IMG/VR virus record: IMGVR_UViG_2890351070_000001
Location: 10,912-74,911 of that record
Origin: a virus
Taxonomy: Duplodnaviria; Caudoviricetes
Strand: one strand, 5' to 3'
DNA: 64,000 nt
A program made the translations under genes and the position numbers. Positions 3,250-18,743 of this stretch are shown here, in pieces. A model generated the notes under the pieces. The model ran no database searches. It was not told where the DNA came from and saw nothing but the letters and a program-made list of their open reading frames with translations. How positions within the stretch are numbered: position 1 is the first letter of the stretch; every line of letters begins with the position of its first letter.

Positions 3250-3531
3250 ATGCTTAAAGGCTGGCCCTTTTCCCTGCAAAAACAACACGAACTTGTCGAG
3301 GCTTATAGTCGACTTTTTGCGTCAAGTGATGGTCAGATTGTTTTGGCCGATATTCTTGACCAGGCGCAAGCTTTTGAGGCGACGCCCCCTGATGGGCCGT
3401 CTGTCTTCAATGACGGAAAGCGTGCTGTTGCGTTTGATATTCTTCGTAAAGCTTCTGTCAGTTCTGACTTAAGAGCAGAGCTGGCAAAAGCAACTTATCT
3501 GAAACAAGAGGAAGATACACAGAATGAGTGA
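3250..3531 (+). CDS. Bbp19-like small phage protein
   Basis: AY.RLF...DGQIVLADI...FNDGKRAV motif, directly after portal. Confidence 0.75.
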   Translation: MLKGWPFSLQKQHELVEAYSRLFASSDGQIVLADILDQAQAFEATPPDGPSVFNDGKRAVAFDILRKASVSSDLRAELAKATYLKQEEDTQNE

Positions 3532-4333
3532 CGATCCCGGTTCAAGTAGTCATGAGTTTTCGGGAGCCGAAAGTCCCGGTTATTCACAACCTTCTCCAGA
3601 TCAGCCCGCATCGCAAGATAGCGGGTCTTTTTATGCCGAAAATTCAAGCTATGCTCAAAACCAAAGTAATGATGACGGTGTAAATACCCAGGTTTTTGAA
3701 GCGCATGGTGGGGCATCCAATGAGGTTCTTCCAGAAAGCGAAGATCATACCATTGGGCAGGATGGTTATATCAAGTTACCCACAGAAGGGGCCAATGAAG
3801 ACGAAATTGACGCTTTTTATGAAGCGTTGGGCGTGCCGGAAACCCCGGATGGTTACGAACTGGAAGTTCCTGAAGAGCTCAGTTCTCAGCATAGTGAGGA
3901 AGACTGGAAAGCCTATACCGGAGCTATTAGTGAGTTGTCGCATGCACTGGGGCTTTCGCCAGAACAGGCACAGGCCCTGGCTGATATGGATTTACAGGCC
4001 AAAACACAATCCATGGAAAACATGGAGCGTGAGCAAGAACAGTATCTGAGCCAACAAATTGAGGAAACCACGGAAACGCTTCGCGATGAGTGGGGATCCA
4101 AAATGGATGTGAATGTCAGAACTGCCAATCGTGCCCTGAAGGCATTGGGTGGTTCTGAACTTGAGGGGGTGTTGTCTGAGGCCGGGGTTCTGAACGACCC
4201 TGTTGTCATTCGCGCCTTTCATAAAGCTGGCCTCTCCCTGGTAGAGGACAGCAGCCCCGGCGGTGCCGGTGCAACCAGACGCAACAAATCTGCTGCGGAA
4301 ATTCTCTACCCATCATCTACTAAGGAAGGCTGA
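3524..4333 (+). CDS. capsid scaffolding/assembly protein
   Basis: Acidic; LGVPETPDGYEL, LSPEQAQAL, LRDEWG motifs; precedes capsid gene. Confidence 0.8.
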   Translation: MSDDPGSSSHEFSGAESPGYSQPSPDQPASQDSGSFYAENSSYAQNQSNDDGVNTQVFEAHGGASNEVLPESEDHTIGQDGYIKLPTEGANEDEIDAFYEALGVPETPDGYELEVPEELSSQHSEEDWKAYTGAISELSHALGLSPEQAQALADMDLQAKTQSMENMEREQEQYLSQQIEETTETLRDEWGSKMDVNVRTANRALKALGGSELEGVLSEAGVLNDPVVIRAFHKAGLSLVEDSSPGGAGATRRNKSAAEILYPSSTKEG

Positions 4334-4335
4334 TC

Positions 4336-5355
4336 ATGGCTACACTTGGAAATACTTTTGTCGATCTTATCGATATTTACAAACAAACTGATCCAAATGG
4401 TTCTACGGCAACCATTATTGAGCTTCTCAAACAGCAAAATCCTATTCTGGATGATGCGATTGCGATGGAGTGTAATAAAGGATCAGAACACCTGCATACC
4501 ATTCGTACCGGTTTGCCGTCTGTTTCCTGGGGCGCGTTGTATCAGGGGATCACGCAATCAAAAGCCAAGCAGCAACAGGTAACCGATACAACAGGTTATC
4601 TGGAAGCTTTGGCAACCATTGATGAGCGTGTTCTAAGCTTGTCAAAAAATGAAGCGGGTGTCCGTCTTAACGAAGCTATGGCGTTCATGGAATCAATGAA
4701 CCAGGAAGCGGCTTCGGGGCTGTTTTATCATGACACAGCCTCTACCCCTGAAAAGTTCAAAGGGCTTTCTGCGCGATTTAGTGCCATTGGTGGCGGCGGT
4801 GCCGGCGAACAGGTCATTGACGCTGGTGGTACAGGATCTGACAACACGTCTATCTGGTTTGTTACCTGGGGCGATCGTCATTGTCATCTGCTTTATCCGC
4901 AAGGCACAAAAGCTGGCTTGCAACGGGACGATATGGGCCGTCAACGCGTTTTGGATGAAAACAATAATCCATACTATGTGAAGGAAGAAAAATTCACATG
5001 GCATCTTGGTTTGGCGGTCAAAGATTGGCGTTATGTATCCCGTGTTGCCAACATTGATGTGTCTGAAATGCAGGCGGGTAATGTGAAACTGTATGATTTC
5101 ATGCGTAAAGCCTATTACAAGCTGCAAAGTCGTATCCGTCGCGGAGATGCGGCAGGCGGTCGTCAGGTTATCTATTGTAACCGTGATGTGCTTGAAGCTT
5201 TGGACGCACTAGCCACGAATGCCGGGGCCGGAGACAACTTTGTTCGTCTGAAAGACAGTGAACTGGAAGGTCAGGAAGTTCTGACCTATCGCGGTATTCC
5301 AATTCGTGAAACCGATGCGTTGCTCAATACTGAAGCACGCGTTTTGTCTGCTTAA
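4336..5355 (+). CDS. major capsid protein (BPP-1 Bbp17/epsilon15-like HK97 fold)
   Basis: 339 aa, IRTGLPSVSW and GTGSDNTSIWFVTWG motifs; near-identical protein at 49573-50592. Confidence 0.92.
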   Translation: MATLGNTFVDLIDIYKQTDPNGSTATIIELLKQQNPILDDAIAMECNKGSEHLHTIRTGLPSVSWGALYQGITQSKAKQQQVTDTTGYLEALATIDERVLSLSKNEAGVRLNEAMAFMESMNQEAASGLFYHDTASTPEKFKGLSARFSAIGGGGAGEQVIDAGGTGSDNTSIWFVTWGDRHCHLLYPQGTKAGLQRDDMGRQRVLDENNNPYYVKEEKFTWHLGLAVKDWRYVSRVANIDVSEMQAGNVKLYDFMRKAYYKLQSRIRRGDAAGGRQVIYCNRDVLEALDALATNAGAGDNFVRLKDSELEGQEVLTYRGIPIRETDALLNTEARVLSA

Positions 5356-5364
5356 TCCTAGCAA

Positions 5365-5429
5365 AAATCTAGGGGTCAAAGTTTAGGGCCAAATTTAGAG
5401 GTCGGGCTTAAAGACCAAATTTAGAGAGA
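5365..5429. repeat. five degenerate 13-bp tandem units between capsid and cement genes
   Basis: AAATCTAGGGGTC / AAAGTTTAGGGCC / AAATTTAGAGGTC / GGGCTTAAAGACC / AAATTTAGAGAGA. Confidence 0.6.
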
Positions 5430-5437
5430 GATTTAAT

Positions 5438-5860
5438 ATGATTCATAGTAAGCAACTCACCTTCTCTGATCAGCAGGCAATTACCAGTACTGCTGCATCA
5501 ACCAACATTCTTGATCTTGGTGCAACCGGAACAGTTGTCGGTGCATCTGCTACGCTGCCAAGTAACCCTGGTGATGGTACTGCGGTGCCGTTGAATGTAC
5601 AGGTGACAGAGGATTTCAACAATCTGACGTCACTTAAGATTGGAATTGAAGTGGATAGCACAACAAGCTTCTCTTCTCCGCGTGAAGTATTGTCCCAGTC
5701 TATTGTACGGGCCGACCTCGTCGCTGGTAAACAGACGTCTTTCCACATTCTGCCCAAAGGTTTGAATGAACGTTATATGCGTCTGCGTTATACCGTGACG
5801 GGCACAAATCCGACCAACGGTAAAATTTCGGCGGCAATTGTGGCCGGAGTGCAGAGTTAA
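5438..5860 (+). CDS. capsid cement/decoration protein (Bbp16-like)
   Basis: FSDQQAIT...STNILDLG, RYMRLRYTV, GKISAAIV motifs. Confidence 0.82.
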   Translation: MIHSKQLTFSDQQAITSTAASTNILDLGATGTVVGASATLPSNPGDGTAVPLNVQVTEDFNNLTSLKIGIEVDSTTSFSSPREVLSQSIVRADLVAGKQTSFHILPKGLNERYMRLRYTVTGTNPTNGKISAAIVAGVQS

Positions 5861-6096
5861 TGGCGCTGCGGGCAAAATCAGCAAAAGGAGCGACTACAAA
5901 GGAGACGCGTCGTGCTGCACGATCAGTGTCTGCTGAAAACCTTTCCGGTGTCCAAAATACTGTGTCGGAAGCTGTGTCGTTGAATGTACGGGCGATTGCC
6001 TTGGGTTATTACGGTGCCCAACTCAGGGAGGAGGGGGATACCTTTGAATTGAGAGAGGCAGAGCACTTTTCATCCAGCTGGATGAAAAGGATTTAG
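5860..6096 (+). CDS. small phage structural-region protein
   Basis: GYYG..LRE.G..F.L....HFS..WM shared with 51025-51312. Confidence 0.7.
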   Translation: MALRAKSAKGATTKETRRAARSVSAENLSGVQNTVSEAVSLNVRAIALGYYGAQLREEGDTFELREAEHFSSSWMKRI

Positions 6097-6132
6097 CGTC
6101 ATCAAGGGTTAAAATTTCCTTTGATGTTTGAG

Positions 6133-6166
6133 AAAACGGGAGATCGGAACACTGATCTCCCGTTTT
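6133..6166 (+). terminator. intrinsic terminator after head genes
   Basis: AAAACGGGAGATC...GATCTCCCGTTTT inverted repeat. Confidence 0.75.
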
Positions 6167-6199
6167 ATATTTTCCCATAATTACAGGTCAGGAAAACAG

Positions 6200-6778
6200 A
6201 TGAGCAGCAAGGTTGAAATCTGTCGGGATGCTTTGCAGATCCTGGGGGATAAATCGATTGTCAGCCTGGAAGACAGCAGCAAAGAAGCACGACAGTGCAA
6301 GATTGCCTATCCCAGAGCGGTAGAGACCGTCTTGCGTAGCTATCCCTGGTCGTGCGCCATTCGTCGGGTCAAACTGGCTGCATCAGCAGAAGTATCTGCT
6401 TTTGGAGAGTGGAAACGATATCGCCGCCCGGTTGATGACATTCAGGTTTTGCCGATCACAACGACAGGTGAAGCCAATGGCTTACCCGTGACCTATCAAC
6501 TAGAGGGACGGTATATCCTGTGCCACCAAGACGCACCGCTTTATTATCGCTATATCAGTAGTGAGGTTGAACCGTCTGATATGCCGCCGGATTTACGCCG
6601 TGTTGTGGCAACTCAGTTGGCCGTGAGATTGGCAGAGGTTCTGACCGGATCGCAAACCAAATTGAATATGGCTCTTGGTCTCTATCGGAATGATTTGGCT
6701 CAGGCAAAAGCCAACGACATGATGGAAGATGGTGTGAGTGATATTATGTCTTCATCATGGGTGGAGGCGCGAAACTGA
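6200..6778 (+). CDS. tail adaptor / tail tubular protein A-like
   Basis: ATG 6200; EICRDALQILG...VLRSYPWSCAIRR; protein identical to 51394-51972. Confidence 0.82.
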   Translation: MSSKVEICRDALQILGDKSIVSLEDSSKEARQCKIAYPRAVETVLRSYPWSCAIRRVKLAASAEVSAFGEWKRYRRPVDDIQVLPITTTGEANGLPVTYQLEGRYILCHQDAPLYYRYISSEVEPSDMPPDLRRVVATQLAVRLAEVLTGSQTKLNMALGLYRNDLAQAKANDMMEDGVSDIMSSSWVEARN

Positions 6779-8541
6779 TGCCACCAAGAACCCTTCAGGC
6801 CAGCTTTGTTCGCGGCGAGATTACGCCCCGATTACATGGACGGGAAGATACACAGCTTTACCAAACAGGATTGGCGCTGTGCGAAAACTGGATCGTCCTC
6901 CCGCATGGTGGCATGACGCGGCGTCCTGGAACACGATTTGTCGCAAAAGCAAAACATGCGGATAAAGAATGTCGCCTTATTTCGTTCGAATATTCGACAG
7001 AAGACGCCTATATTCTGGAAATTGGCGATCTTTACATGCGGTTTTACCGTGATTTCGGGCAAATAGAAAAAGATGATGCCCCCTATGAAATTACCACACC
7101 TTATAAGGAAGAAGAGCTGTTTGATCTGGTTTTTACCCAGACGGAAAACAGTCTGTGGATTGTGCACAAGGATCATCCGCCAAAAGAATTGAAACGAAAT
7201 GATCATGCCGATTGGGCCTTGGCGGATATTACCTTTACCGCCAAACCGTCGGAATGGAAGGCAGGGAATTATCCCAGACGTTGCTCCTTTTATCAGCAGC
7301 GATCTATTTTTGCCTCACCACCTGATCAGCCACAAACCATCTGGACATCGAAAACATCTAATGAGAAAAATTTCACTTTAGGCACCAATGCTGACGATGC
7401 GTTTAAAGCCACGATCAAGGCCGGACAAGTCAACCACATTCAATGGATGGTCGAGGGACGTGCCCTAATGATGGGGACATCCGGAGCCACAAGGACATTG
7501 AGTGGATCTTCGGCCAATGAAGCCCTGACGGTTACGTCGGTTATCAACCGCCGCCATACCACCGAGGGATCAGCGGCTATTCCACCTATCCAGAAGGGGG
7601 AGGTGGCTCTATTTTTAAGCCGGAATAGAAAACGGTTGCATGAATTTGTGTTCTCGTTTGAGCGAGACAGCTTTATTGCGCCCGATCAAACCTTTTTATC
7701 CCAACATATAACGGGAACCGGGATCAAGGATATGGACATGGTCAATGACCCTGATTCCATTATCTGGATGGTCCGGGACGATGGACAACTGGTTGGCGTT
7801 ACTTATGAAAAATCTCAAGAGGTTGTCGCGTTCCACCGTCATAAGCTGGGCGGTTCAACAGACGAACATGAGTGGGGCGAAGTTGAAACCGTTGCTGTGA
7901 CCTATGAAGCCAAGCGTGAAGTTTTGTGGCTGTCGGTTAAACGTAAAGTCAATGGAGAAATTGTGCGCCACATTGAATTTATGGAAGCCGGGTTTGATGA
8001 TGGTCTGGACAAAAAAGACGCCTTCTTTGTGGATTGCGGCGGAACCTATGAAGGTGTCGCGGCGAACACAATTAATGGTTTTGATCATCTGATCGGGCAA
8101 GAGGTGGATATATTACACGATGGCAAGGTGTCTCCGCGATCAACGGTGGCAAATGATGGCAAGGTATCGCTAAAAAATAACCGTACAGGTTTGAAAATTA
8201 CAGCTGGCTTGCCTTACCAGTCGGTCGTACAGCCCTTGTCCCCGATTGTTGCTTTGCAAAATGGGACAGGCCGAGGCAAGAAAAAGCGTGTTGTTTCCAT
8301 GGGCGTTGATGTGATGAACACGGGAACAATCGAAGCCGGAGACAGCCTGGAAGACACTCAAACACATATCTTCCGCGATGGATCAACACCCTTTGGTCAA
8401 TCCCCGGATCTCTACACCGGGTACTTGGAAATTGATCCGGAAAACGGCTTTAGCGACAAGGCGCAAATTTTTATCAGAGCAAGACAGCCGTTACCGGCTA
8501 CTATCCGGTCACTCATCACAGAAGTACAGTCAGAGGGGTAA
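6778..8541 (+). CDS. tail nozzle / tail tubular protein B-like
   Basis: TGATG coupling; SFVRGEITPRLHGR and PHGGMTRRPGTRFV N-terminal motifs. Confidence 0.85.
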   Translation: MPPRTLQASFVRGEITPRLHGREDTQLYQTGLALCENWIVLPHGGMTRRPGTRFVAKAKHADKECRLISFEYSTEDAYILEIGDLYMRFYRDFGQIEKDDAPYEITTPYKEEELFDLVFTQTENSLWIVHKDHPPKELKRNDHADWALADITFTAKPSEWKAGNYPRRCSFYQQRSIFASPPDQPQTIWTSKTSNEKNFTLGTNADDAFKATIKAGQVNHIQWMVEGRALMMGTSGATRTLSGSSANEALTVTSVINRRHTTEGSAAIPPIQKGEVALFLSRNRKRLHEFVFSFERDSFIAPDQTFLSQHITGTGIKDMDMVNDPDSIIWMVRDDGQLVGVTYEKSQEVVAFHRHKLGGSTDEHEWGEVETVAVTYEAKREVLWLSVKRKVNGEIVRHIEFMEAGFDDGLDKKDAFFVDCGGTYEGVAANTINGFDHLIGQEVDILHDGKVSPRSTVANDGKVSLKNNRTGLKITAGLPYQSVVQPLSPIVALQNGTGRGKKKRVVSMGVDVMNTGTIEAGDSLEDTQTHIFRDGSTPFGQSPDLYTGYLEIDPENGFSDKAQIFIRARQPLPATIRSLITEVQSEG

Positions 8542-8545
8542 AGTT

Positions 8546-8989
8546 ATGGGATGGTTCAAAAATATATTTAAAGGTGTCAAAAAAGTTTTAAAAGGCGCGG
8601 TTCCTGTTGTTGCAGGCTTAGCAGGTATTGGCGGACTGGCATCGACGGCTGGTTTGCTTGGGGCAGGTGGGGCTCTTTTTAACGGTTTTTCCCAACGTAA
8701 ACGTGCCAAAAAACAGGCCAAAATGGCCCGAAGATTTGCGGCACAAGAGGCCGCGATTAGCCGGCGAAATACACAACGTTTGGCGGGGCAGCAACGTGCC
8801 AATTTTGCAGCGGCAGGCTTGAAAATTGAAGGCAGCCCAGCTTTGTTGATTGAAGAGACTGAAAAACTGGGGGCGCAGGAAGTTGATAATATTCTCTACG
8901 CCGGAAATCAGAAAGCCAAAGCTTATAAACGTGCCGGAAACAACGCTATGATCGGTGGCTTCTTGAATGCGGGATCAAGCTTCTTATAG
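8546..8989 (+). CDS. small internal virion (ejection) protein
   Basis: Gly/Ala-rich hydrophobic segments; GQQRANFAAAG..IEGSPALL shared with 53736-54203. Confidence 0.75.
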   Translation: MGWFKNIFKGVKKVLKGAVPVVAGLAGIGGLASTAGLLGAGGALFNGFSQRKRAKKQAKMARRFAAQEAAISRRNTQRLAGQQRANFAAAGLKIEGSPALLIEETEKLGAQEVDNILYAGNQKAKAYKRAGNNAMIGGFLNAGSSFL

Positions 8990-9088
8990 TTATTGATATG
9001 CGTGATAATTTTAAACCTTATGGTTGAATTTAATGTTGCTTTCTGAGTTAATTGGCTATCTGAATTTGATAGAAAATGAGATCATTGA

Positions 9089-9670
9089 ATGTTTATGACA
9101 GCTATTCAGTCACGTTTTAAGGAAATAGAATTCAAACGGGTATTGAAAGCCTTTATCATTTCTATACTGGTTCTTTTTCTTCTGACCTTTGTATATGAAT
9201 TTATTGATAAAATTTATTATGACTTTATTTCTATAGATGAAAAGAACCCTCAAAAGACAAATATGCTTCTGGAGAGAGTTCTGGAGTTGATCATAAAGTT
9301 TTCGCTTTATTTAATTCTCTATCAAATTCCGTCAAATTTGCCTGTTCTCTTGGGGGGATTGGTCCTGAATTTCTTTAAAGTGAAACGGATCATTTGGACA
9401 TATTTGCTCTTTGTTATCTGCTTCATTTCATATGATATTTATAACCTGTTTGAATTTATGTATCCACGTCAAGGTCCATCAACGTTTGGTTATAGCACGA
9501 GGGATTGCGTGGCTATTGTTGACAATGTTCGGACCGCTTGCGGGTATGAAATCTGGGCAAAAGGTTTTTTTGTGGATTTAGCTGAAGGTTTGATTGGTGC
9601 CGTAGTTTATTTGAGATTTTATCAAAAAGGAACAAAAGAGAATGTCAGACAAGTGGCAGATAAATATTGA
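9089..9670 (+). CDS. multi-pass membrane protein, no counterpart in the prophage copy
   Basis: About 4 hydrophobic helices, AT-rich DNA, CVAIVDNVRTACG loop. Confidence 0.65.
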   Translation: MFMTAIQSRFKEIEFKRVLKAFIISILVLFLLTFVYEFIDKIYYDFISIDEKNPQKTNMLLERVLELIIKFSLYLILYQIPSNLPVLLGGLVLNFFKVKRIIWTYLLFVICFISYDIYNLFEFMYPRQGPSTFGYSTRDCVAIVDNVRTACGYEIWAKGFFVDLAEGLIGAVVYLRFYQKGTKENVRQVADKY

Positions 9671-9819
9671 TCTGTAGGATGTTTTAATCCGCCACTTCAG
9701 ATCATAGTTTTTACCTTATCGTGTATAATCTCTAATTTTTTTTAGATCCACGCATTGCTGCTGGACTTGTTTTTTTCTGTCACAAATTCAGTTGGTTCAA
9801 GCTCAAAGGGTTTCCAAAA

Positions 9820-10161
9820 ATGCCAAATATTCCGGATAGTCGTACACCAGAAACTGTTAGATTTCAGCTTCCCGATGAGAATGTCAAAGATCTTGTCGAT
9901 GGGTATGAGTCTTTGGTGAAGGGAATTAAACGCAGGGGCTGGGATAAAAAACTGGATGCCTTTTTCTTTGGTGAACCAGAGGATGTTATTGATTCTGATG
10001 AAAAGCTTAAAAGCCATCGAGATGAGGCTTTAGAAGAGAAAGCCAAGATGAATAAGTTGAGAAAGCAGGCCGTTCACGAGAAATATAATCCAGGCTTACT
10101 TGGGGGGTATGCTGCTAATTCTTCATTGCTGTTTCGGACGAAGAAAACACGAAGGGTATAG
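9820..10161 (+). CDS. short protein with ejection-protein-like N-terminal leader
   Basis: Starts MPNIPD..RFQLPDEN like 10386 (MRNIPD..RFELPEEN) and 54203 (MPNIPD). Confidence 0.6.
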   Translation: MPNIPDSRTPETVRFQLPDENVKDLVDGYESLVKGIKRRGWDKKLDAFFFGEPEDVIDSDEKLKSHRDEALEEKAKMNKLRKQAVHEKYNPGLLGGYAANSSLLFRTKKTRRV

Positions 10162-10385
10162 GAAAATAATCTCTGAGAGCGCTTCGATTTGTTCGTTATT
10201 GAAAGAACATAAGCAGAGGTTTGTGACCTAGCTAGTCTTTGTGTTGTTGCTTTCTCGTTGTCCCGTTTGCGGGCAGATAAAACTTATCCAAAATCACCAT
10301 ACCTAATTTGCAAGGTCCGGTAGTTTATACACTGGGCCTTTTTTTATTCCGAGTATTTCTGGCTCGTACAACGAGGTTTTTTGCC

Positions 10386-13300
10386 ATGCGAAACATTCCT
10401 GATAATCAGGTATCGACCACAGCTCGATTTGAACTTCCTGAAGAAAACAGCGCCACAATTGAAAATGGCATTTCCCACCTTTCCAGTACCGTCGTGTTGC
10501 GTGAAACCCAAGAAAATAAAGAACAGAAAACATACCGGACGGAAAATGCTGATGATGGTGGACTGTTGGATGATATAAAATCCGGGATAGATACTGTATC
10601 AGAATACTTGCACAACACTTTGCAGGATGTCGATCTCCATGACGGCATTTCTGAGCTTACCACAAATATCTATCGGGGAGTTGTTGATCTAATCAATTTT
10701 GAAAATCTTTCCCCAACAGAAGTCCGGAAAAAAGTAGATCAGGAATATGGCGGAATAAAAGCCGAACTTTCTACTCGTCATAAAAAGGAGGCTCCAGAAC
10801 AAGCACACAAATTTGACGAAAAACTGGATAAAAAGATCAGTGCGGATAAACAGTATATTGAAAGTTTGCAGCAAAGTGCTTACCAGAAAAAAGCTTTTGG
10901 TACGATTGATCGTCTAGCTAAGAAATATGGTCATGGTGTTACGCAAAGCCCGGAAACCTTGACGGATGCTATGATTTCTATTGAGGATACTGTTAATAAG
11001 CTGGCTCCCGGAATTGGGCGGGATAGGGCCGTTACCAAAATAAAAGAAACGCGGGGAGTATTGTTTAACAACGCATTGCAGGGATATACGGATCAAAAAA
11101 ATTATATCGCAATTCAATCTCTTTTGGATGGCATTGATCCGGTGACGAATGCAAGGTTGAACAGTGGCGATTATATCACAGCAGAAGAGAGAGACTATTT
11201 CCAAAACCTGGCTGGCAAAGGATTAAGGCGTGAGGCGGCATACCAATTACTGGATGAAGTTGAGGCCCAGGTTATATCAACGGATGAGTTGTTGGATGCT
11301 TTGCAAAATCATCCCGATAGCAGTCTTGGTCAGGAAGCACTGTCCCTTTGGCAAGACAGAAAGCGAATTGAAAAAAAGGTAAACAGAGACCGGGCCAAAA
11401 AACAACGCTATTCAGTATGGCAAAATATTACAGAGACTAACGGTAATGTTGATGTCACTGATTTACCTTTGGATCTATCCGATGAAGATCGGGATCTATT
11501 CATTTCCTATCTGAATAATAAAGATGATCTGAACATGGGATTGTATGATCCCAAAGGCCCGGGCGCCAAGATTACGGACGTGCTCCTTTATGAAATAAAG
11601 AAGTTGCAGATAGCGAACCCGGACATTTTCGCAGATCGGGATTTATCTGGTTATTTCAGAGAGTTATCCCCCCAGAAAATTGCCCGGGTCATCGCAATGC
11701 AAGAAAACGGACTTGATCCCAAAGATGCCGCCAGTTTCAAAATGCGTGAAAGAGAGGCCCTCAGGGCTTGGAAACAAGTGACGGGCCGTAATGGTTATGA
11801 CGAACCGGACCGACAGGAGTTTATTAACTTCAGCATTCGTTTCGGCGAAGAAATTGACGACTTTATTACGCTTGAAGAAAGACCTGCAAGCGGTGGGGAT
11901 ATCAACAAAATCGCCAACAGGATGATTGAAAGTGATGAGATGATTTCACTAGAGAACGTGGATGAAGCACTTAGCGATGGAGAACAAGAGTTCTTTGAAA
12001 ATGAAAGAGATTTAAATGTTGATTTTCCAGTAACTGTATCAAATGAAGAAGAATTTAACAATTTAATTGAAAAGCAGGTTGAACTTCCAGAAGGAGTGAC
12101 AGCAACTTTTGTAGAAGATGAACAGACAGCTCTTGATGATAAGCATACAGGAAAACCAAGCTACAATGTTATCTTTCACGATGCAGATGGAAATCTTATA
12201 GATGGCCCTGCAACTATGAAACGTCTTCCTGGAGAGACTAACGAACAAAGCCATCTTAGGTATGTGCCGGGAGAGGGGTTTTTGAAAGATCAACCAAGAA
12301 ACAAAAAACAATATAATCTGGCGAGTACGGCTGCCAGGGATTACATCTACGGAATTCGTGGACGACATCCAGTAAATGAAGATGAAGAAAAAGAGATCTT
12401 CCTGTTAGCTGAAAATATCTACGGCATTATCCGGGAAGAGTACGGTGATGAGAATCATATCTCACAAGGTGAAATCTATACGATGGTTGATGACCTTGCT
12501 GCTGAAGGTAAAGCTCCTCGATTAAATGGATATAAACCACCAACTACACAATTAGGGCGAGATTTAGAGAAATACTACAAAGAAACGAATGTATTTGGAC
12601 GGTTTAGAAATGGGTTTATGTATGGCGCAAGAGGGATTATGGCCTCAGGTAATATTTCAATTGGGTTGAATCATCTTGAGCAGAGTGAACGTTTCGGAAA
12701 TTGGGCGGATAGAAAGCAAAAACAACTCGAAGCAGAAGAAGTTGCAATACGTAAAAAAGCAGAACATCTAGGCGTTGATTTTAAGGATGTCGAGCATTTA
12801 CTTTCACCAACTCGTATGAAGGTTAAAGAATATAGAAGATCTGAACAAGAGTATAGAGAAAACTTTATTGGCTTTATTACCAGAGGCGCAGAGTTTAAAG
12901 AGTTAATGGAGCAGGGGCGTCGAAATCCAGTTATAGTGGCAATGGAAAAAGTAGAAAATCCAGACGAATTTTGGGAGTTAATGTCTTATGATCCTATGGG
13001 TGTTGTTGGACAATATTTTCTAGAGAATTTGGCTAGCACTGCGGTAGATATGGCTAGTGGTGTCGTCGGAGGCCCCGCTGCCAGTGCTGCAGTTTCAGGC
13101 TCATTAGAGCACTCTAAGGTTCTAATGGAAAAATTAGAAGAATACGGTGCAGATTTGAAGGACCCCAAAAGCGTCCAAGAAACAATGACGGAACATGGCG
13201 ACGAAATAAGAAAAGATGCGAGAGTACAAGCATTTGTTGCTGGTGCTGCGAGTGTTATGACGGGGTGGATGGTTAACTCTGCAGTTAAAAAGCCGATTGT

Positions 13301-13430
13301 TCAAAAGGCATTAGAACCAGGTGGCAAGGTCGTCGAAGTAATAGGAGAAAATACTGTTTCTGCTGTTGGGAATGTTTTTTTGACACCATCTTCTAAATCT
13401 GTTGTTCGAGATGTGATTAGAGTACCTTAA
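10386..13430 (+). CDS. large internal virion/ejection protein, chimeric (1014 aa)
   Basis: N-terminal third similar to 54203-56275 (LLDGIDP motif), remainder unrelated; hydrophobic G/A segments near C-terminus. Confidence 0.72.
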   Translation: MRNIPDNQVSTTARFELPEENSATIENGISHLSSTVVLRETQENKEQKTYRTENADDGGLLDDIKSGIDTVSEYLHNTLQDVDLHDGISELTTNIYRGVVDLINFENLSPTEVRKKVDQEYGGIKAELSTRHKKEAPEQAHKFDEKLDKKISADKQYIESLQQSAYQKKAFGTIDRLAKKYGHGVTQSPETLTDAMISIEDTVNKLAPGIGRDRAVTKIKETRGVLFNNALQGYTDQKNYIAIQSLLDGIDPVTNARLNSGDYITAEERDYFQNLAGKGLRREAAYQLLDEVEAQVISTDELLDALQNHPDSSLGQEALSLWQDRKRIEKKVNRDRAKKQRYSVWQNITETNGNVDVTDLPLDLSDEDRDLFISYLNNKDDLNMGLYDPKGPGAKITDVLLYEIKKLQIANPDIFADRDLSGYFRELSPQKIARVIAMQENGLDPKDAASFKMREREALRAWKQVTGRNGYDEPDRQEFINFSIRFGEEIDDFITLEERPASGGDINKIANRMIESDEMISLENVDEALSDGEQEFFENERDLNVDFPVTVSNEEEFNNLIEKQVELPEGVTATFVEDEQTALDDKHTGKPSYNVIFHDADGNLIDGPATMKRLPGETNEQSHLRYVPGEGFLKDQPRNKKQYNLASTAARDYIYGIRGRHPVNEDEEKEIFLLAENIYGIIREEYGDENHISQGEIYTMVDDLAAEGKAPRLNGYKPPTTQLGRDLEKYYKETNVFGRFRNGFMYGARGIMASGNISIGLNHLEQSERFGNWADRKQKQLEAEEVAIRKKAEHLGVDFKDVEHLLSPTRMKVKEYRRSEQEYRENFIGFITRGAEFKELMEQGRRNPVIVAMEKVENPDEFWELMSYDPMGVVGQYFLENLASTAVDMASGVVGGPAASAAVSGSLEHSKVLMEKLEEYGADLKDPKSVQETMTEHGDEIRKDARVQAFVAGAASVMTGWMVNSAVKKPIVQKALEPGGKVVEVIGENTVSAVGNVFLTPSSKSVVRDVIRVP

Positions 13431-13448
13431 AACGTTTTTTGAGATGAA

Positions 13449-13496
13449 TTGTTCACCCCTTATCCTCCATCTATAATCATTCTTGGATAAACAGGT
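13449..13496 (+). promoter_or_regulatory. sigma70-like promoter with module-1-specific downstream motif
   Basis: TTGTTC-17nt-TATAAT then CATTCTTGGATAAACAGGT. Confidence 0.7.
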
Positions 13497-13499
13497 CTC

Positions 13500-13528
13500 A
13501 ACCTCTGCTTTTTAGCAGAGGTTTTTTT
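13500..13528 (+). terminator. intrinsic terminator in the leader of tail fibre 1
   Basis: AACCTCTGCT-tttt-AGCAGAGGTT followed by T run. Confidence 0.78.
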
Positions 13529-13544
13529 ATTGGGAAAATCTGAC

Positions 13545-14453
13545 ATGACTATTTCTGCGACACCGCGGAGGGCCTCTTACACCGGGGATGGCTCTACGGT
13601 AACTTTTGCTGTGCCCTTTAAGTTTCTTGCCGATAACCACTTGAAGGTTGTGGTGACAATGCCAAGCGGAGCTGAAACTCTTGTGACACCTTCGCAAATA
13701 AGTGGTGCGGGAACCGAAAGTGGTGGCTCTGTAACACTTTCTTTTGCACCTGTTACGGGGGATACGGTCACAGTTCTGGGAGCGACACCGTTGGAGCAGC
13801 AAACTGATCTCGCGGTATCAGATGGTATGCCCGCCGACGTTATTGAAACCGCTGTTGATCTGTTGACCATTCAGAACCAGGAACAGGACGTACAGATTGG
13901 TCGGGCAATTAAGTTACCCATTGCCTATTCAGGGGATGAGTTGCAATTCCCGGCACCGGTGCCCAATGAAGTGCCCTATTATGATGAAAATGGCAAACTG
14001 GTGATGTCATCAGTTGGCTTTAGCACCTTGATGTCGACGGTTCAGGATTTGATTAATCTCGCCAATGACACTGGTCAGGCACATACCCATGATTTTTCGG
14101 TTTTGACCGGAACAGATCAGGTTCTTTTGGCGAATTTATCCCGAATTTTGGGGGTGAGTTACCCGACCGCTGTTAATTCATATGGCAATACGACAGATAA
14201 TCCTGTGATTGATCTGACCAAAACCTTCCTCACATCAATGACCAATAATGGCAATGGGGTCATAACGGCGGATAAAGCCAATAACAACTCTGTTGATGTC
14301 TGGTTGACCAATGGACCGACAGCAGGGGCATTGGATATTTCCAGCTTTGATTATGTGAAGGGATCATTTGGTGTCGGGGACGGTGTGATCACCATCATGC
14401 ATATGTCTACCGTCAACGGCATTGCCCGCGTTGCGTTAGAGGTGTTGGAATGA
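13545..14453 (+). CDS. tail fibre anchor protein (T7 gp17-like N-terminal domain)
   Basis: YTGDGSTVTFAVPFKFL motif; N-terminal half shared with 59519-60868. Confidence 0.82.
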   Translation: MTISATPRRASYTGDGSTVTFAVPFKFLADNHLKVVVTMPSGAETLVTPSQISGAGTESGGSVTLSFAPVTGDTVTVLGATPLEQQTDLAVSDGMPADVIETAVDLLTIQNQEQDVQIGRAIKLPIAYSGDELQFPAPVPNEVPYYDENGKLVMSSVGFSTLMSTVQDLINLANDTGQAHTHDFSVLTGTDQVLLANLSRILGVSYPTAVNSYGNTTDNPVIDLTKTFLTSMTNNGNGVITADKANNNSVDVWLTNGPTAGALDISSFDYVKGSFGVGDGVITIMHMSTVNGIARVALEVLE

Positions 14454-17400
14454 GAGCTCTTTATTCAGGTACTGACGGCTGGAGCAATGATCTTGAGGCT
14501 TCTCTTGCTCTCTCAGCCGGGAAGAAGCTGACCTACACCCCTACGGTCACAGGAAATCGTCGTCAGTTTACGATTATGTGTAATGTTCGTCGGGTGAAAC
14601 ATGGGGCCTCACAGCATTTGTTTTCTGCGGGTACTGCTGCACAGACTAAAGGGTTTCAGATAAGGTTCGACGCTGATGATAAACTCGCGGTAGTTGATCA
14701 TTTTTCTGGAGGAATGTCACTAGGCACAAAACAACTTTTCAGAGATACAGAATGGATGTTTGTTGGGGTTTCAGTGGATACTGTGGCCCGAACTCTTAAA
14801 CTCGTCGTTAACGACCAAGAGGTAGATGACTTCGCTTCGTTCCGTATTCCTATCGCGAACTCGCAACTTGCTGTAAACGACAGCACGTCCAGTATGCGGA
14901 TTGGCGCGGACACTAATGGCGTAGCAAACGTCGAAGCCAACATATCCGATTTCGTTCTCCTTGATGGCGAAGTCCTGACGCCGCAGGAAATAATCAATTA
15001 CCGAACACAGAACATCCCCTTTGGTAATAACGTCATCACTACGACAAAGAAGTTCACAACTGAGGGACAGCAAGAGCGGTTCTTGGCATTACACAGGAAT
15101 GATCCAGCGAGTAATACAACCAAGATTCTTGATGAGGGCAAGTATGTTGAACGATCAACATCATCGTGGGACACCGTCCACTCTGACGTATTGCCAAGTA
15201 CAGGTAAATATCAGATTGAATTTGGATTGGGTGCGGATGCATTTAATGCCGTAGTAGGTATTGGTCCTTCTGAAAATACAAGCCCAAGAGGTGGGCTAAC
15301 CACGAATACATTTGGTAATTTTACGGGCATTACATTTAGTGGATCTTCTCTAAAATCCTTTAACAATGCCAGCACAACAATTGACCCACCAGAATGGGGT
15401 GCCAATGTTACACATGATATGTTCTCAATGTATGTTGATATGGATGCCAGAACGGCAATCCTTGCGATTAACGGGATAGAATTACCGACAGTTCATTCCA
15501 TAACTTCTGGCGATGTCCGCTACTACATAGACTTGCACAGTTTAAATCCCGGTGCGTCAGTCAACTTTGGTCAGGCCAATTACAAATACCCTAAAGCTGG
15601 TTATGGTCCCCTTAAAGAACCCGCAAAGTCTGACCTCAAGCGGTGTAAACTTCGTCCTAATGCATCGGGCCTTTTGACTTCCAGCCCGTCAAATGAATTT
15701 AAATCTCCGGGCAATTCCTGGTATTCGGCGGTATCTGATTTCGTCTGTCCTGCTGATGGTCGCAAATTCTATGCAGAAGTAACTATAGATGTATTAGGTA
15801 ACATTATGTTTGGGGCCTCCAAAGTAACCCCAAATGTTAATGAAACCTACCTTGGGCATTATGGAGATAGTGCCGGATACTATTGGCATGGCAGCAATAC
15901 AGGCTACTACCATGACAATATCTCAGTAAGTGCCGATCCTGCTGTTTTGTCAGCCACACAGTCTGGTGATTTTGTGCAGGTGGCTATTGATCCAAACATA
16001 GGTGATATGTGGGTCGGACGTAATGATGTGTGGGTTGGTGATCCTGCTGCAGGTACTGAGGCCCTTTATAATTTAGGCACCGACGGAATGAGATTTATGG
16101 TGTCTGCTAGTCAGACAGTAGCGCGAAGCACAATCAACTTCGGAGACCGTCCTTGGCAAGGATCTCCTCCAACGGGTTTTGTTGGCCCCGCCAGTGTAAA
16201 TTTTGACACGCTTCGTAAATCTGGCGACGCAGTAAACTACGAGTACGGCCCGAACGGTACGCAGCTATTGTTTGAAGATGGGGGTAACCTTGGGAAATCC
16301 TCTGCCGGTAATCTTTTGCTGTGGAGCCTGACAGGAATTACTTCAGATGATCAGATAACAGACACGCCGGGTGATCCTTATGCAGTCTTGAATTCGATTG
16401 ATATGCAGGGGCTTAAAATAACCTCGGGAGGTTTGGGTGTTACAGGTACAGCTTCAACATCATATGGTGGAGTTAAAGCTACTCTTCCTCTGATAGAGAT
16501 CGGCTCCTATTGGGAAGTTGAATCCACATCATCGAATACCGACGGGTTTGTGTGCATTGCTCATGTCGAAACAGCACCAGTATATTCGTCTTCGATCGTT
16601 TTCGGTAACGATGTTGGCAAGGATGACTTCTATTATAGAACTTACAATGGAGCTCTAAGAAGGAATGGTGGGGCTTCTCCTGCAATATCGGATTTAGCTT
16701 TAGGCGTGGGAGATCATGCTTGTATGGCTTACAAAGATGGTAATCTTTGGGTAGGCACTATCAAGAGTGGCATTCAGTCTTGGTATAACGGTGGAGATCC
16801 TGCAACAGGTGCGAACCCCACAGAAACTGGTTTTACTGGAGTTTTGTATCCTGCTGCTAACTGTACCAGTAATAATGGTCTTGTGTTTAATTTCGGGCAG
16901 CAAGTCTTTGAAGGTACTATTCCTGCTGGCTTCAAGGAACTCAAAAGTTCCAACCGGGAAACACCCAAGTATCACGGGCGGGATAAGTTTGATGTGAACC
17001 TACGAACCGGAACAGGTGCAGATGCTACAATTCTCACCCCGTTCGATAAGACGGGTTTGAGTTGGACTAAGAACAGAAATGCCTCGAACGAACACATCTT
17101 ACAAGACAGACTTCGCGGGGCAGGAAAAGAGTTGTACTCAAGCCTAGCAAGTGCCGAAGCAACTAGAGCAGATAGCGTTAAAGCCTTCAACGATGGGCAG
17201 ATTCTTATAGGTGATCGTAACGGGGTGAATAACAACGGCAATAACTTTGTCGATTGGATATTCGGTAATGATGGAACAGAGGTCACCAACAATGACGGTA
17301 CAATCCCTTCTCAGGTTGTAGCCGATAGTTCTGGTTATATGTCTATCCTTGAGCACATAGGGGACGGGCAAACAACCTCTACCGTTGGGCATGGGATGCC

Positions 17401-17992
17401 AGATGTTCCAGACCTCATCATCTCTAAAAATTTGGACACAGCACAGGATTGGGTTGTCCACACTGCTGTCATGACGACAGGATGGATAGGCTCTGATAGC
17501 TGGTTAAAACTTCATACATCCTCAGCTCAAGTAACCGGGACACTTTTAGGCACAGAACCAACCGATAAAGTTTTTCAGCCTACTAATAGTAGGAATAACG
17601 GGAACGGACAAAGGCATCTTCACTTGTGTTTTAAATCGGTCCCGGGGCTTTCCAAAGTCTTTAGCTATAAAGGTAATGGTTCCAATACTGGTCCCTATAT
17701 TGATTGCGGCTTCAAGCCTAGATGGATCATATACAAACGGATTAGTAGCACGTCTCAGTGGACCATTCACGATACTGAGCGCGATCAATTTAATCCCACA
17801 AGGGCAATCCTTGAAGCGAGTACATCTTCTGCCGAGAATGTTTTAACGACACTGGACATGGATATTTTGTCTGATGGTTTCAAGCTTAGAACTAGCCATC
17901 AAAATCATAATTATAGTGGTCATACCTACATCGGCCTCGCAATCGCAGATGTTGCTGGTGGCGGCAATCTTCCAGCTATCTTGGGGAATTAA
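14450..17992 (+). CDS. large receptor-binding/tail fibre protein with LamG- and SPRY-like beta-sandwich domains
   Basis: 1180 aa; repeated GKYQIE/KFYAEV/SYWEV ... NFGQ units; C-terminal YKGNG..GPYIDCGFKPRWI and DILSDGFKLR motifs typical of marine phage fibres. Confidence 0.72.
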   Translation: MRALYSGTDGWSNDLEASLALSAGKKLTYTPTVTGNRRQFTIMCNVRRVKHGASQHLFSAGTAAQTKGFQIRFDADDKLAVVDHFSGGMSLGTKQLFRDTEWMFVGVSVDTVARTLKLVVNDQEVDDFASFRIPIANSQLAVNDSTSSMRIGADTNGVANVEANISDFVLLDGEVLTPQEIINYRTQNIPFGNNVITTTKKFTTEGQQERFLALHRNDPASNTTKILDEGKYVERSTSSWDTVHSDVLPSTGKYQIEFGLGADAFNAVVGIGPSENTSPRGGLTTNTFGNFTGITFSGSSLKSFNNASTTIDPPEWGANVTHDMFSMYVDMDARTAILAINGIELPTVHSITSGDVRYYIDLHSLNPGASVNFGQANYKYPKAGYGPLKEPAKSDLKRCKLRPNASGLLTSSPSNEFKSPGNSWYSAVSDFVCPADGRKFYAEVTIDVLGNIMFGASKVTPNVNETYLGHYGDSAGYYWHGSNTGYYHDNISVSADPAVLSATQSGDFVQVAIDPNIGDMWVGRNDVWVGDPAAGTEALYNLGTDGMRFMVSASQTVARSTINFGDRPWQGSPPTGFVGPASVNFDTLRKSGDAVNYEYGPNGTQLLFEDGGNLGKSSAGNLLLWSLTGITSDDQITDTPGDPYAVLNSIDMQGLKITSGGLGVTGTASTSYGGVKATLPLIEIGSYWEVESTSSNTDGFVCIAHVETAPVYSSSIVFGNDVGKDDFYYRTYNGALRRNGGASPAISDLALGVGDHACMAYKDGNLWVGTIKSGIQSWYNGGDPATGANPTETGFTGVLYPAANCTSNNGLVFNFGQQVFEGTIPAGFKELKSSNRETPKYHGRDKFDVNLRTGTGADATILTPFDKTGLSWTKNRNASNEHILQDRLRGAGKELYSSLASAEATRADSVKAFNDGQILIGDRNGVNNNGNNFVDWIFGNDGTEVTNNDGTIPSQVVADSSGYMSILEHIGDGQTTSTVGHGMPDVPDLIISKNLDTAQDWVVHTAVMTTGWIGSDSWLKLHTSSAQVTGTLLGTEPTDKVFQPTNSRNNGNGQRHLHLCFKSVPGLSKVFSYKGNGSNTGPYIDCGFKPRWIIYKRISSTSQWTIHDTERDQFNPTRAILEASTSSAENVLTTLDMDILSDGFKLRTSHQNHNYSGHTYIGLAIADVAGGGNLPAILGN

Positions 17993-17994
17993 TC

Positions 17995-18546
17995 ATGAAA
18001 TATGCAATTGAAAAAAATGGGACCCTTGTTTCTCAAATAAGCGGTTGGACACTCGGACTAGCAAAGAAATGTAACCTTATAGGGAACAAACAGGCTCCTC
18101 AAGATTTGCCATTTGATTTGGGGGATGGCGCGACGCTTAGGGTTGTTCGGACTGTTAAAGCTAGTCCAACACCTTATCAATATGTTGTTGATGATGGTGC
18201 ATTGGTCGGGAATGAATGGGTTATCTCTCAAACAGCAAAGGACAAACCTACAGATCAAATTAGCACTCAAAAACGATTAGATATTAATATTGAAGCTGCT
18301 CGTCGGATCGAAAACATCGCACCGATCTGGAAACAGATTAGGGGGAGTGAACGTGCCATTGAATTACTTGAGATAAAAAGCACGAGGGAGTGGGGTGAAG
18401 ATGAGATTGTTGAGGCTGATTATCTTCGAGCAAAACGTAAAGAAATTGAGGCCATTCGCTCAAGGTCAAATGCTTTGATGCTTCTACCAGATGAAGAATT
18501 GATAAAAGTCGATGTTCTTGATGATATGACATGGCAAACATCATGA
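17995..18546 (+). CDS. putative tail fibre assembly/chaperone protein
   Basis: Position; INIEAARRIE..APIWKQ...IEAIRSRSN pattern. Confidence 0.55.
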   Translation: MKYAIEKNGTLVSQISGWTLGLAKKCNLIGNKQAPQDLPFDLGDGATLRVVRTVKASPTPYQYVVDDGALVGNEWVISQTAKDKPTDQISTQKRLDINIEAARRIENIAPIWKQIRGSERAIELLEIKSTREWGEDEIVEADYLRAKRKEIEAIRSRSNALMLLPDEELIKVDVLDDMTWQTS

Positions 18547-18572
18547 TTGATACAGTGCTAAGAGGAGAAAAC

Positions 18573-18743
18573 ATGGATAAATTTATCGGTGTTACAGCTG
18601 TATCAACTCCTTTATGGCTTCATTATTTTAACACTGGTATCGCGATCTGTGTTGGTCTTGGAGGCGTGTTGTTACTTGGCTTCAGGATAGCAAAGGCCAG
18701 ACAAGATTACTTAAAGGCGAAAGAGGAGAGGGGGAAGTCATGA
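18573..18743 (+). CDS. putative holin
   Basis: 56 aa, hydrophobic helix, basic tail, GAGGAG RBS, ATGA-coupled to endolysin. Confidence 0.55.
   Translation: MDKFIGVTAVSTPLWLHYFNTGIAICVGLGGVLLLGFRIAKARQDYLKAKEERGKS

Follow-up and report, generated by a model that had tools for sequence, protein, structure and literature searches.

The T7-type ejectosome is composed of the ejection proteins gp14, gp15 and gp16, which correspond to EP3, OEP and TEP of phage PhiM1. According to the part of the T7 study available to us, the N-terminal domain of gp15 is flexible and stabilized by gp14, membrane-spanning elements are conserved in the homologs of gp14 and gp16, and domain swapping between ejection proteins is common (PMC8954989). 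Polyvalent proteins form a class that is proposed, in the accessible sections of Iyer et al. 2017 (PMC5512222), to be injected together with DNA. Here, we analyze the ejection-protein locus (positions 8546-13430) of a podovirus-type element in a 64,000-nucleotide (nt) stretch of viral DNA, referred to as the window. The window comprises bases 10912-74911 of the 74.9-kb IMG/VR 'provirus' record IMGVR_UViG_2890351070_000001 and contains two related podovirus-type gene sets: module 1, to which the locus belongs, and a complete lambdoid-type prophage, which stretches from its integrase to the window end. With slightly better than even confidence, we read the locus as a gp16-less mosaic ejection-protein locus of a BPP-1-like, T7-tailed podovirus-derived element fixed in the Kiloniella chromosome.

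Organization of the ejection-protein locus

The locus contains four open reading frames (ORFs), for which the ejection genes of the prophage serve as the comparator:

8546..8989, plus strand: gp14-like small internal virion (ejection) protein of 147 amino acids (aa), with a Gly-rich hydrophobic N-terminal part
9089..9670, plus strand: mem193, an integral membrane protein of 193 aa, accessory (moron-like)
9820..10161, plus strand: orf113, a protein of 113 aa carrying the leader of the gp15 family
10386-13430, plus strand: p1014, a gp15-like protein of 1014 aa
53736..59409, plus strand: prophage trio of the gp14/gp15/gp16 type, with proteins of 155, 690 and 1044 aa

The prophage genes are tightly coupled, and each start touches the preceding stop (53736-54203 for the 155-aa protein, 54203-56275 for the 690-aa p690, and 56275-59409 for the 1044-aa p1044). 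The four ORFs of module 1 are separated by spacers of 99, 149 and 224 nt, in the order tube A, tube B (phrog_376), gp14-like gene, mem193, orf113, p1014, and a fiber gene with the T7 tail-fiber N-domain. These arrangements agree with an earlier reading of the letters alone (the original prediction), which had described a coupled trio in the prophage and, in module 1, a retained small ejection gene followed by a membrane-protein gene and two further ORFs with long spacers.

The locus resembles that of the T7-type ejectosome in its position between tail tube B and fiber, in its small Gly-rich hydrophobic gp14-like protein, in its large all-helical second protein without strong transmembrane helices, and in the modular domain swapping between ejection proteins that is described in the available parts of PMC8954989 and PMC11440229. 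It differs in lacking a homolog of gp16/TEP and in having accessory genes and terminator-like hairpins within the block. Furthermore, its gp15-like protein contains an insertion of 260 aa, ends in an extension that varies between relatives, and has no profile match to T7 gp15.

In blastn comparisons, module 1 and the prophage are 74-87% identical over portal, capsid, tube A/B and the lysis end. The homology is interrupted exactly between 8542 and 13522, save for 87 nt within the gp14-like gene, and breaks again at the distal fiber. The downstream limit coincides with the following feature:

13500..13523, plus strand: terminator-like hairpin with a 10-pair stem followed by a T-run, in the gap between p1014 and the tail-fiber gene (13530-14453); prophage homology resumes at 13522

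A repeat scan of the region returned short chance-level repeats only, and promoter and terminator-like sites were not enriched over shuffled sequences (9 promoter-like sites found, 10.7 expected). With an E cutoff of 0.1, Rfam had 0 matches in 8300-13700; with cutoffs of 5 for Pfam and 1 for NCBIfam, only chance-level rows appeared. The same set of alleles occurs elsewhere, in a 12.7-kb contig of another run that is ~97.6% identical. Between the gp14-like and gp15-like genes, the complement of accessory genes varies among genomes. The ejection locus of K. laminariae, itself without mem193, contains an IS4/5-family transposase (L010:7516-8408; DUF4096 and DDE_Tnp_1, in two ORFs).

Retention of a gp14-like protein and absence of gp16

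The gp14-like protein matches phrog_418 'internal virion protein' (E 7e-11), as does the 155-aa prophage protein, to which it is 56% identical (E 2e-35). We mapped relatives of the locus with the proteins of the window and obtained seven genome loci and three metagenome loci. The gp14-like protein is 71-92% identical in six related loci, and the ratio of nonsynonymous to synonymous substitution rates (dN/dS) of its gene is 0.055-0.061 against three Kiloniella genomes (G001, G003 and G004). All dN/dS and dS values were obtained with a Nei-Gojobori script run on tblastn alignments.

The largest protein of the prophage trio, p1044, matches phrog_342 'internal virion protein with endolysin domain' (E 7.5e-119) over profile positions 225-1226. 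The original prediction had noted that module 1 holds no equivalent of it, and the absence extends to every relative that we mapped. No p1044 homolog was found in any frame of module 1 by BLASTP and tblastn, nor in any of the seven genome loci and three metagenome loci, and p1044 (P0004) matches nothing in five whole Kiloniella genomes. The fiber gene directly follows the gp15-like gene in 9 of 10 related loci; the remaining one, L005, ends too early to read. Profile phrog_342 was found in 4 of 4 other genomes only up to profile position 158, which we take for the lytic-transglycosylase end of the profile, in ORFs of 488-697 aa that we read as host lytic transglycosylases. In the positive control, the window's own record (G000), the gp16 body was recovered over positions 225-1227. 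The long protein of module 1, p1014, has no PHROG match and no BLAST or tblastn match to p1044. Homologs of p1044 were found by tblastn in 118 phage records, 55 of which cover at least 80% of it. The complete trio is thus the ordinary state, and the loss of gp16 is particular to this lineage.

Mosaic structure of the gp15-like protein

An exhaustive HMMER search with p1014 returned 39 proteins at E <=0.001, and the matches divide p1014 into three parts. The following features can be distinguished in its gene, with confidence of the AlphaFold2 (AF2) model given as predicted local distance difference test (pLDDT):

10386..11984, plus strand: leader (residues 1-22) and all-helical gp15-like N-domain, together residues 1-533; a divergent allele
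11934..12053, plus strand: acidic low-confidence linker, about residues 517-556, in which identity to the related protein P0002 ends and GC content drops; pLDDT <50 at residues 526-552
12042..12305, plus strand: module 2, residues 553-640, a small beta-rich module common with the C-terminal end of the p690 family
12537..13373, plus strand: module 3, residues 718-996 (core 845-965, at 12918-13280), helical, with a Gly/Ala-rich hydrophobic stretch

Residues 1-540 are common to eight proteins of 641-1253 aa. By source name, six of these are from Kiloniella (four of them in loci L005, L007, L008 and L010) and one is from a Halopseudomonas metagenome-assembled genome (L009). The N-domain of p1014 is 74% identical to that of P0002, and this identity stops at residue 533, where the GC content falls from 0.443 (11001-12000) to 0.388 (12001-13000), in line with the predicted rise in AT-richness behind an acidic linker. 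Against the orthologs in G001-G005, the N-domain is only 32-40% identical (36-40% in G001, G003 and G004), whereas the gp14-like protein, mem193 and the proximal fiber protein (fibre307) of G001, G003 and G004 are 82-94% identical to those of the window. Given this contrast with the flanking genes, a distant allele has taken the place of the gp15-like gene. The exchanged segment starts behind mem193, and the window lacks a gene for a protein of 276-304 aa that comes next after mem193 in 6 of 7 loci. This protein starts with MSDKWQLN.DGTATF, its gene overlaps the end of mem193 (L004:9035-9865 and homologs in L005-L009), and it has no family in any library.

Residues 77-289 of p1014 match residues 57-279 of p690 (25% identity, E 8e-14), as had been predicted for the first third of the protein. 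The match is not confined to that third, since residues 563-619 also match p690 residues 581-636 (E 3e-4). The second part of p1014, residues 552-640, is common with the p690 family in the HMMER search, and module 2 is 57% identical to the corresponding parts of P0011 and P0012.

The C-terminal extensions of the relatives are of at least three kinds. Extension E1 is present in G002, G003, L029, P0010-12 and P0021; E2, which contains module 3, in the window, G005 and P0002; and E3 in G001, P0041 and L009. G004 has no extension, and its C-terminal half is p690-like. By these alignments the gp15-like gene is modular, in that its conserved N-domain is followed by one of at least three interchangeable extensions or by no extension, which bears out the C-terminal polymorphism that the original prediction had proposed to survey. 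The gp15-like ORFs are open over 845-1110 aa in seven full loci. The allele of L005, of 641 aa, is possibly truncated.

No match was found by tblastn to p1014, as a whole or over residues 718-1014, in 50,697 phage records, so that a full-length alignment to ordinary phage proteins, which had been named as a finding that would overturn the prediction, did not appear. Neither p1014 nor P0011 has an IMG/VR relative by peptide patterns. No PHROG, Pfam or NCBIfam family was assigned to p1014 or p690, and a sequence search of the PDB gave nothing for the alignment A1, p1044 or p690.

Module 3 and predicted fold of p1014

The core of module 3 reads NP..A....EFW..F..DP.GV.GQ, followed by a Gly/Ala-rich stretch and GADL.DP.SV....HGDEIR. 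In phmmer searches, module 3 is present in 25 of 40 other stored proteins. It sits in the N-terminal regions of giant polyvalent proteins of 2176-4843 aa. The bearers that were scanned contain Pfam domains AAA_34/Helicase_C_4 (SNF2-like), InPase, LPD38, LPD23, LPD1, ART-PolyVal, PBECR3/5, RelA_SpoT, SLT, M15 and ddrB-ParB. In the one gene context obtained, a polyvalent-type bearer of 2205 aa (L026:2022-8639, minus strand, on a high-GC IMG/VR contig), with the module at about residue 287, has virion structural genes on one side and an endolysin gene on the other; its PHROG matches are to a methyltransferase-annotated family. No Pfam model covers module 3. A lead to LPD22 (protein-atlas score 0.85) was rejected, as PF18834 gave no match.

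Residues ~845-965 of p1014 are thus homologous to a module that lies near the N-terminus of polyvalent proteins, and p1014 is encoded in a structural operon. It differs from them in that the module is at the C-terminus, behind a gp15-like body, and in that it has no recognizable enzymatic or effector domain. Searches of Pfam, PHROG, NCBIfam and PADLOC found no enzymatic domain, and together with the fold search they found none of the two or more disparate biochemical domains by which polyvalent proteins are defined; the conserved associated module and the encoding with virion genes, which also define them, are both present. Module 3 links T7-type ejection proteins to giant polyvalent proteins, and may be a common handle for packaging or membrane insertion.

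The AF2 model of p1014 has a mean pLDDT of 75.3, with values >90 over residues ~170-520. A Foldseek search with the model gave no match at E <=0.001; the best was 8vb2_E, an ejectosome chain of PhiM1, at E 0.027. VIA-align superpositions are in the range quoted for unrelated helical proteins, namely Z 8.0, root-mean-square deviation (rmsd) 20.4 and 280 aligned residues for 8vb2_E, Z 7.2, rmsd 13.0 and 292 aligned for 9jyy_G (T7 core), and Z 7.0, rmsd 36.9 and 299 aligned for 7k5c_A (T7 gp15 tunnel). All three alignments fall in the first ~615 residues of p1014 (21-387 to 37-615). Residues 540-735, comprising module 2 and its flank, were also modeled alone (pLDDT 69.6). The best match of this segment had Z 7.3 (a helical Sld7 domain), none reached Z >=8, and a BFVD search gave nothing at E <=0.001. 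Full-length VIA rows for residues 737-850 were set aside as generic long-helix matches. The original prediction had proposed a Foldseek search of the region behind residue ~300; neither p1014 nor residues 540-735 alone showed a toxin or enzyme fold by Foldseek and VIA-align.

A moderate hydrophobic window, always C-terminal, is present in 10 of the 14 proteins of the family scanned; P0006 (G004), P0002 and p690 have none. In p1014, the window spans residues 949-967, and the Gly/Ala-rich stretch residues 885-905. p1044 has one hydrophobic window, at residues 182-201.

Leader, duplicated hairpin unit and orf113

The leader pattern ATGCSNAAYATHCCNGAY (M(P/R)NIPD) matches exactly at 9820, 10386 and 54203 and has 0 matches in 100 shuffles, which upholds the shared start noted earlier. 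MPNIPDS is the N-terminus of the p690 family (P0011, P0012, P0021 and P0022) and of the long-N family, in which conservation extends to about residue 36 (MPNIPDSRAP....F.LPDEN...V..G...LS). In the AF2 model, residues 1-22 of p1014 are predicted to be disordered (pLDDT <50). Among five genomes, the pattern occurs at an ORF start only at this locus, and only gp15-like and orf113-like proteins carry it. One extra match (G001:C3) lies in the interior of an unrelated 390-aa ORF and was dismissed.

Some T4 internal proteins have a capsid-targeting sequence, a short common N-terminus, removed by the prohead protease, on differing capsid-interior proteins that are encoded in a variable locus. The leader differs from it in being present on two kinds of protein only and in being the native N-terminus of a structural protein. 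The idea of a conserved loading leader holds insofar as a conserved N-terminus precedes variable C-terminal halves. As judged from the alignments, the leader is the N-terminus of the whole gp15-like family, with a conserved domain of ~530 aa behind it, and not a free tag.

A hairpin with a U-run lies ~45-70 nt upstream of each leader ATG. Alignment of 11 copies supports 10 base pairs, 4 of which show compensatory changes. The two copies in the locus are:

9747..9775, plus strand: weak terminator-like hairpin with U-run, ~50 nt upstream of orf113; -6.8 kcal/mol, z -0.75; falls on the conserved hairpin of A9, an alignment of 11 sequences
10312..10347, plus strand: terminator-like hairpin with U-run, ~45 nt upstream of p1014; -15.2 kcal/mol, z -2.0

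The unit of hairpin, ribosome site and leader is duplicated, as it precedes both orf113 and p1014 in the window and both the orf113-like and gp15-like genes in L006 and L010. L006 has a third copy, in which ATG is changed to ATA, ahead of two inserted genes. In our reading, these duplications are traces left by recombination events in which DNA was placed ahead of the gp15-like gene.

orf113 is composed of the leader (~first 36-50 residues), an acidic patch GEPEDVIDSD and a basic tail. It has 15 of 39 residues in common with the N-terminus of p1014 (E 1e-6), and full-length homologs occupy the same position in K. antarctica (L006, 46% identity) and K. laminariae (L010, 41%). The family has 38 invariant columns, including the patch GEPE.VIDSD and a C-terminal LL.G..N...RR. 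The ORF is open in all three lineages despite saturated synonymous change; by our own arithmetic, the chance that ~75 unconstrained codons stay without a stop is ~0.03 per lineage. The dN/dS of orf113 is ~0.3 against G002, and other comparisons are saturated. No family match was obtained in Pfam, PHROG, NCBIfam or PADLOC. Its conservation marks orf113 as a small paralog rather than debris. The first 36-50 residues that it has in common with the gp15-like protein suggest that it enters the same assembly.

Membrane protein mem193

mem193 has about four hydrophobic segments and a GC content of 34%, compared with ~48% in the neighboring genes. None of Pfam, PHROG, NCBIfam and PADLOC assigns it to a family, and its homologs occur only in Kiloniella elements and as two metagenome proteins. 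Six of the seven genome loci, and L029 as well, have the gene at this position; it is absent from the prophage copy, G005, L010, L027 and L028. Its dN/dS of 0.18-0.29 indicates purifying but relaxed selection.

The proteins of the window (extension E2), G001 (E3), G003 (E1) and G004 (no extension) are 82-89% identical in mem193, and the gene is missing from G005, which has the same extension type as the window. By this distribution mem193 follows the backbone and not the extension type, so that a reading as cognate immunity fails. An immunity gene of a polymorphic-toxin system would co-vary with the toxin domain, and mem193 does not; the C-terminal halves of the gp15-like proteins vary, and no known toxin family or fold was found in any of them.

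Prophage morons and superinfection-exclusion membrane proteins include HK97 gp15 and P22 SieA. mem193 resembles them in being small and multi-pass, in its lower GC content, in its place in a late structural operon, and in being followed by a terminator-like hairpin. It has no sequence relation to any known moron or exclusion protein, and a moron-type function such as exclusion is our guess. In a 582-nt contig from a relative of 90-95% identity, 313 nt of mem193 are missing (window 9125-9439). The contig is of low depth and the sole record of this gap; the gap would break the frame, and mem193 may hence be dispensable in some strains.

Module 1 as a chromosomal element

Module 1 consists of TerS, TerL, head, tail and lysis genes. 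The positions of module 1 and of its right-hand neighbors are:

96-20043: module 1, a podovirus-type gene set, whose own TerS and TerL are just upstream, in L003 (record bases 1-10911)
21737-21827: tRNA-Ser(GCT), to the right of module 1
22009-23310: integrase of the second prophage, 180 nt past tRNA-Ser

As its integrase starts 180 nt after tRNA-Ser, the second prophage occupies the tRNA site beside module 1. The structural module is BPP-1-like with a T7-type tail, with Pfam matches to Bbp16 and Bbp19, matches to phrog_332, phrog_212, phrog_394 and phrog_376, and the T7-fiber N-domain.

In G001, the left border of the element comprises host genes for a periplasmic binding protein and a histidine kinase and a gene for a TopoIA-RecD2 fusion, and the right border is tRNA-Ser. 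On the left side, the order periplasmic binding protein, histidine kinase, TopoIA-RecD2 and TerS is conserved among G001-G004, and tRNA-Ser is to the right of the element in the window's own record, G001, G002 and G003. In at least four species of Kiloniella, module 1 thus occupies one fixed place, with the TopoIA-RecD2 gene on one side and tRNA-Ser(GCT) on the other. The fusion protein combines Toprim, Topoisomerase IA, RecD2-type helicase and SH3_13 domains in 1338+ aa (L003:1-4017, minus strand) or 1347 aa (L016:14588-18631, minus strand) and is the left border in all genomes examined.

No integrase, repressor or replication genes were found within the element in G001. TerL is intact in 5 of 5 genomes, and TerS is intact as well. 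All structural ORFs are intact in five species, with dN/dS of 0.007-0.06 at dS of 0.4-1.3. The host flanks are as diverged as the structural genes or more, with dS of 1.15-1.29 or saturated. The fixed locus, the lack of a detected integrase and the strong purifying selection together make module 1 look like a conserved, apparently domesticated element; the prophage beside it retains gp16. Since TerS and TerL are intact, module 1 particles probably package DNA. In the literature, as far as it was available in part, no description of such a Kiloniella element was found.

Interpretation of the locus

Under the reading that we favor, the gp14/gp15/gp16 trio has been reduced to a gp14-like protein and one long gp15-like protein, with the gp16 homolog absent from every member examined. 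The hairpin, the ribosome site and the first 40-50 codons have been duplicated where foreign DNA entered upstream, and one of the duplicates has become orf113. The stabilization of the gp15 N-terminal domain by gp14 in T7, reported in the accessible part of PMC8954989, makes the leader a candidate for the gp14-contacting or core-assembly end of the gp15-like protein. orf113 could then be co-assembled through its leader, and the hydrophobic C-terminal extension may take over part of the inner-membrane role of gp16. mem193 would act in the producing or lysogenic cell, for example by excluding related particles, and not as immunity to a cargo.

Podovirus ejection proteins are already known as mosaic. 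What is unusual here is a whole lineage that has dispensed with every gp16-type protein and yet maintains strong selection on its head, tail, terminase and lysis genes. The locus can be regarded as a natural test of which ejectosome functions are dispensable, and of whether a gp15-type protein with add-on modules can suffice alone. The duplicated hairpin and leader unit bears on how new genes insert and are possibly recruited to the capsid core.

Several observations weigh against this reading. The takeover of the gp16 role by the extension is a weak step: the allele of K. spongiae (P0006) has neither an extension nor a hydrophobic window and yet also lacks gp16, and the hydrophobic window of p1014 itself is marginal (mean 1.31). 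Comparison of the module-3 alignment with p1044 by hhalign gave nothing (probability 0.3), nor did BLASTP of P0012, which carries extension E1, against p1044. No Pfam, PHROG or NCBIfam profile or PDB sequence search links p1014 or p690 to T7 gp15, and the fold matches to ejectosome chains (Z 7.0-8.0, rmsd 13-37 Å) are in the noise range quoted for helical proteins. Nine small metatranscriptome contigs of 95-100% identity cover parts of mem193, orf113 with its downstream spacer (including 9971-10270), and p1014, and these contigs from RNA libraries are not separable from DNA carry-over. Two polyA RNA runs gave 0 reads and so say nothing about expression.

The original prediction had proposed a cargo/immunity cassette, in which the leader loads variable effectors, mem193 protects the producer, and the particle mainly delivers protein or attacks membranes. 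Two leader-bearing ORFs in three lineages, C-terminal halves swapped between otherwise near-identical elements, and variable accessory genes ahead of the gp15-like gene would all suit such a cassette, as would the module 3 that p1014 has in common with a class proposed, in the available text of PMC5512222, to be injected effectors. The part in common is, however, the N-terminal module of the polyvalent proteins and not an effector domain, no toxin, nuclease, peptidase or defense family was detected in p1014, orf113 or the other alleles, and the fold searches of p1014 gave no enzyme fold. PADLOC applied to mem193, orf113, p1014 and eight accessory ORFs returned nothing but a weak ankyrin-type row for a 262-aa protein of L008. 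The conserved part is ~530 aa and not a short tag, no other leader-bearing gene exists in five genomes, and mem193 is 82-89% identical across E2, E3, E1 and no extension and missing from the E2-type G005. The sequence observations of the original prediction are confirmed and its interpretation is supported only in part; we regard the cassette as quite unlikely. That module 1 is a defective prophage remnant with a locus that has ceased to work, in which gp16 was deleted, orf113 is what remains of the 5' end of a gp15 allele that was displaced, and the spacers are scars, is in our view highly unlikely. The lack of a detected integrase, repressor or replication gene in the G001 element would fit decay, and so would the long spacers, the insertion sequence in L010, the ATA pseudo-leader in L006, the possibly truncated 641-aa allele of L005 and the low-depth contig with a 313-nt gap inside mem193. 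Decay is contradicted by structural ORFs that are intact in five species at the low dN/dS given above, by gp15-like ORFs that are open in seven full loci, and by an orf113 that is open in three lineages at 41-46% identity with 38 invariant columns.

An arms race over exclusion differs from the preferred reading only in the driving force: the block 9670-13430 would have recombined to escape a mem193-type block of ejection by resident relatives, and the diversity of gp15-like alleles would reflect escape from superinfection exclusion. We consider it unlikely, but it is supported by the host having two related elements side by side that lose their homology precisely at the ejection block and once more at the distal fiber, and by the position of mem193 inside the ejection locus, AT-rich and with a promoter-like site upstream. 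HK97 gp15, a moron, is reportedly an inner-membrane protein that blocks DNA entry, which also counts in its favor. mem193, however, is without homology to any described exclusion or defense protein and absent from the prophage copy, L010, L027 and L028, and promoter-like sites in the region are no more numerous than in shuffled sequences.

It is also conceivable, though improbable, that module 1 is a domesticated podovirus-type particle of Kiloniella comparable to a gene transfer agent (GTA), with an ejection apparatus rebuilt without gp16 and with the hairpin-leader unit as a landing pad. As context only, module 1 resembles RcGTA-type agents in having structural genes at a conserved chromosomal locus, under purifying selection, with no integrase or replication genes found, and differs in being podovirus-type (BPP-1-like) and not RcGTA-like. 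In the part of PMC6821227 available to us, 0 RcGTA-like clusters are listed for five genomes of Kiloniellales. In such a particle, the conduit of gp14 and gp15-like proteins would reach only the periplasm, and DNA would be taken up by the ComEC-type machinery of the recipient, as for RcGTA; alternatively, the conduit might deliver its own swappable C-terminal modules. Genes inserted at the landing pad would be expressed and would also gain access to the capsid core, and orf113 would be the first passenger. Of 14 controls, 10 also have ComEC, so that finding it in 5 of 5 Kiloniella genomes says little. If true, the GTA-like reading would describe an independent, podovirus-based domestication in Alphaproteobacteria.

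Other features of module 1 and the prophage

The distal fiber protein of module 1 (window 14450-17992; 1180 aa) contains DUF7483 and a weak SPRY match. It is 42-48% identical between species over its full length and 74% identical over its first 36% in G004. The proximal fiber protein (307 aa) is 93-94% identical in G001, G003 and G004. By these comparisons the distal fiber is a second hypervariable cassette of module 1. The gene in the scaffold position matches phrog_458 'protease' and no Pfam family.

The gap between TerL and portal in G001 (L017:848-5451) is an accessory island with two TM2-domain proteins, two Rap1a-type proteins (immunity proteins of the type VI secretion system) and an IS4/5-type transposase. 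The copy in the window's own record (L003 6257-10824) has a gene set that differs from that of G001. In window 20145-23310, which also includes tRNA-Ser and the integrase, an AT-rich insert separates module 1 from tRNA-Ser; its two minus-strand genes are an ORF of 96 aa and an AraC/ExsA-type regulator. In the prophage, two ORFs (31886-32584 and 31923-32765) overlap in different frames, and both match DNA methyltransferase families and adjoining parts of the phrog_363 profile. The methyltransferase gene at 31886-32765 looks frameshifted or split.

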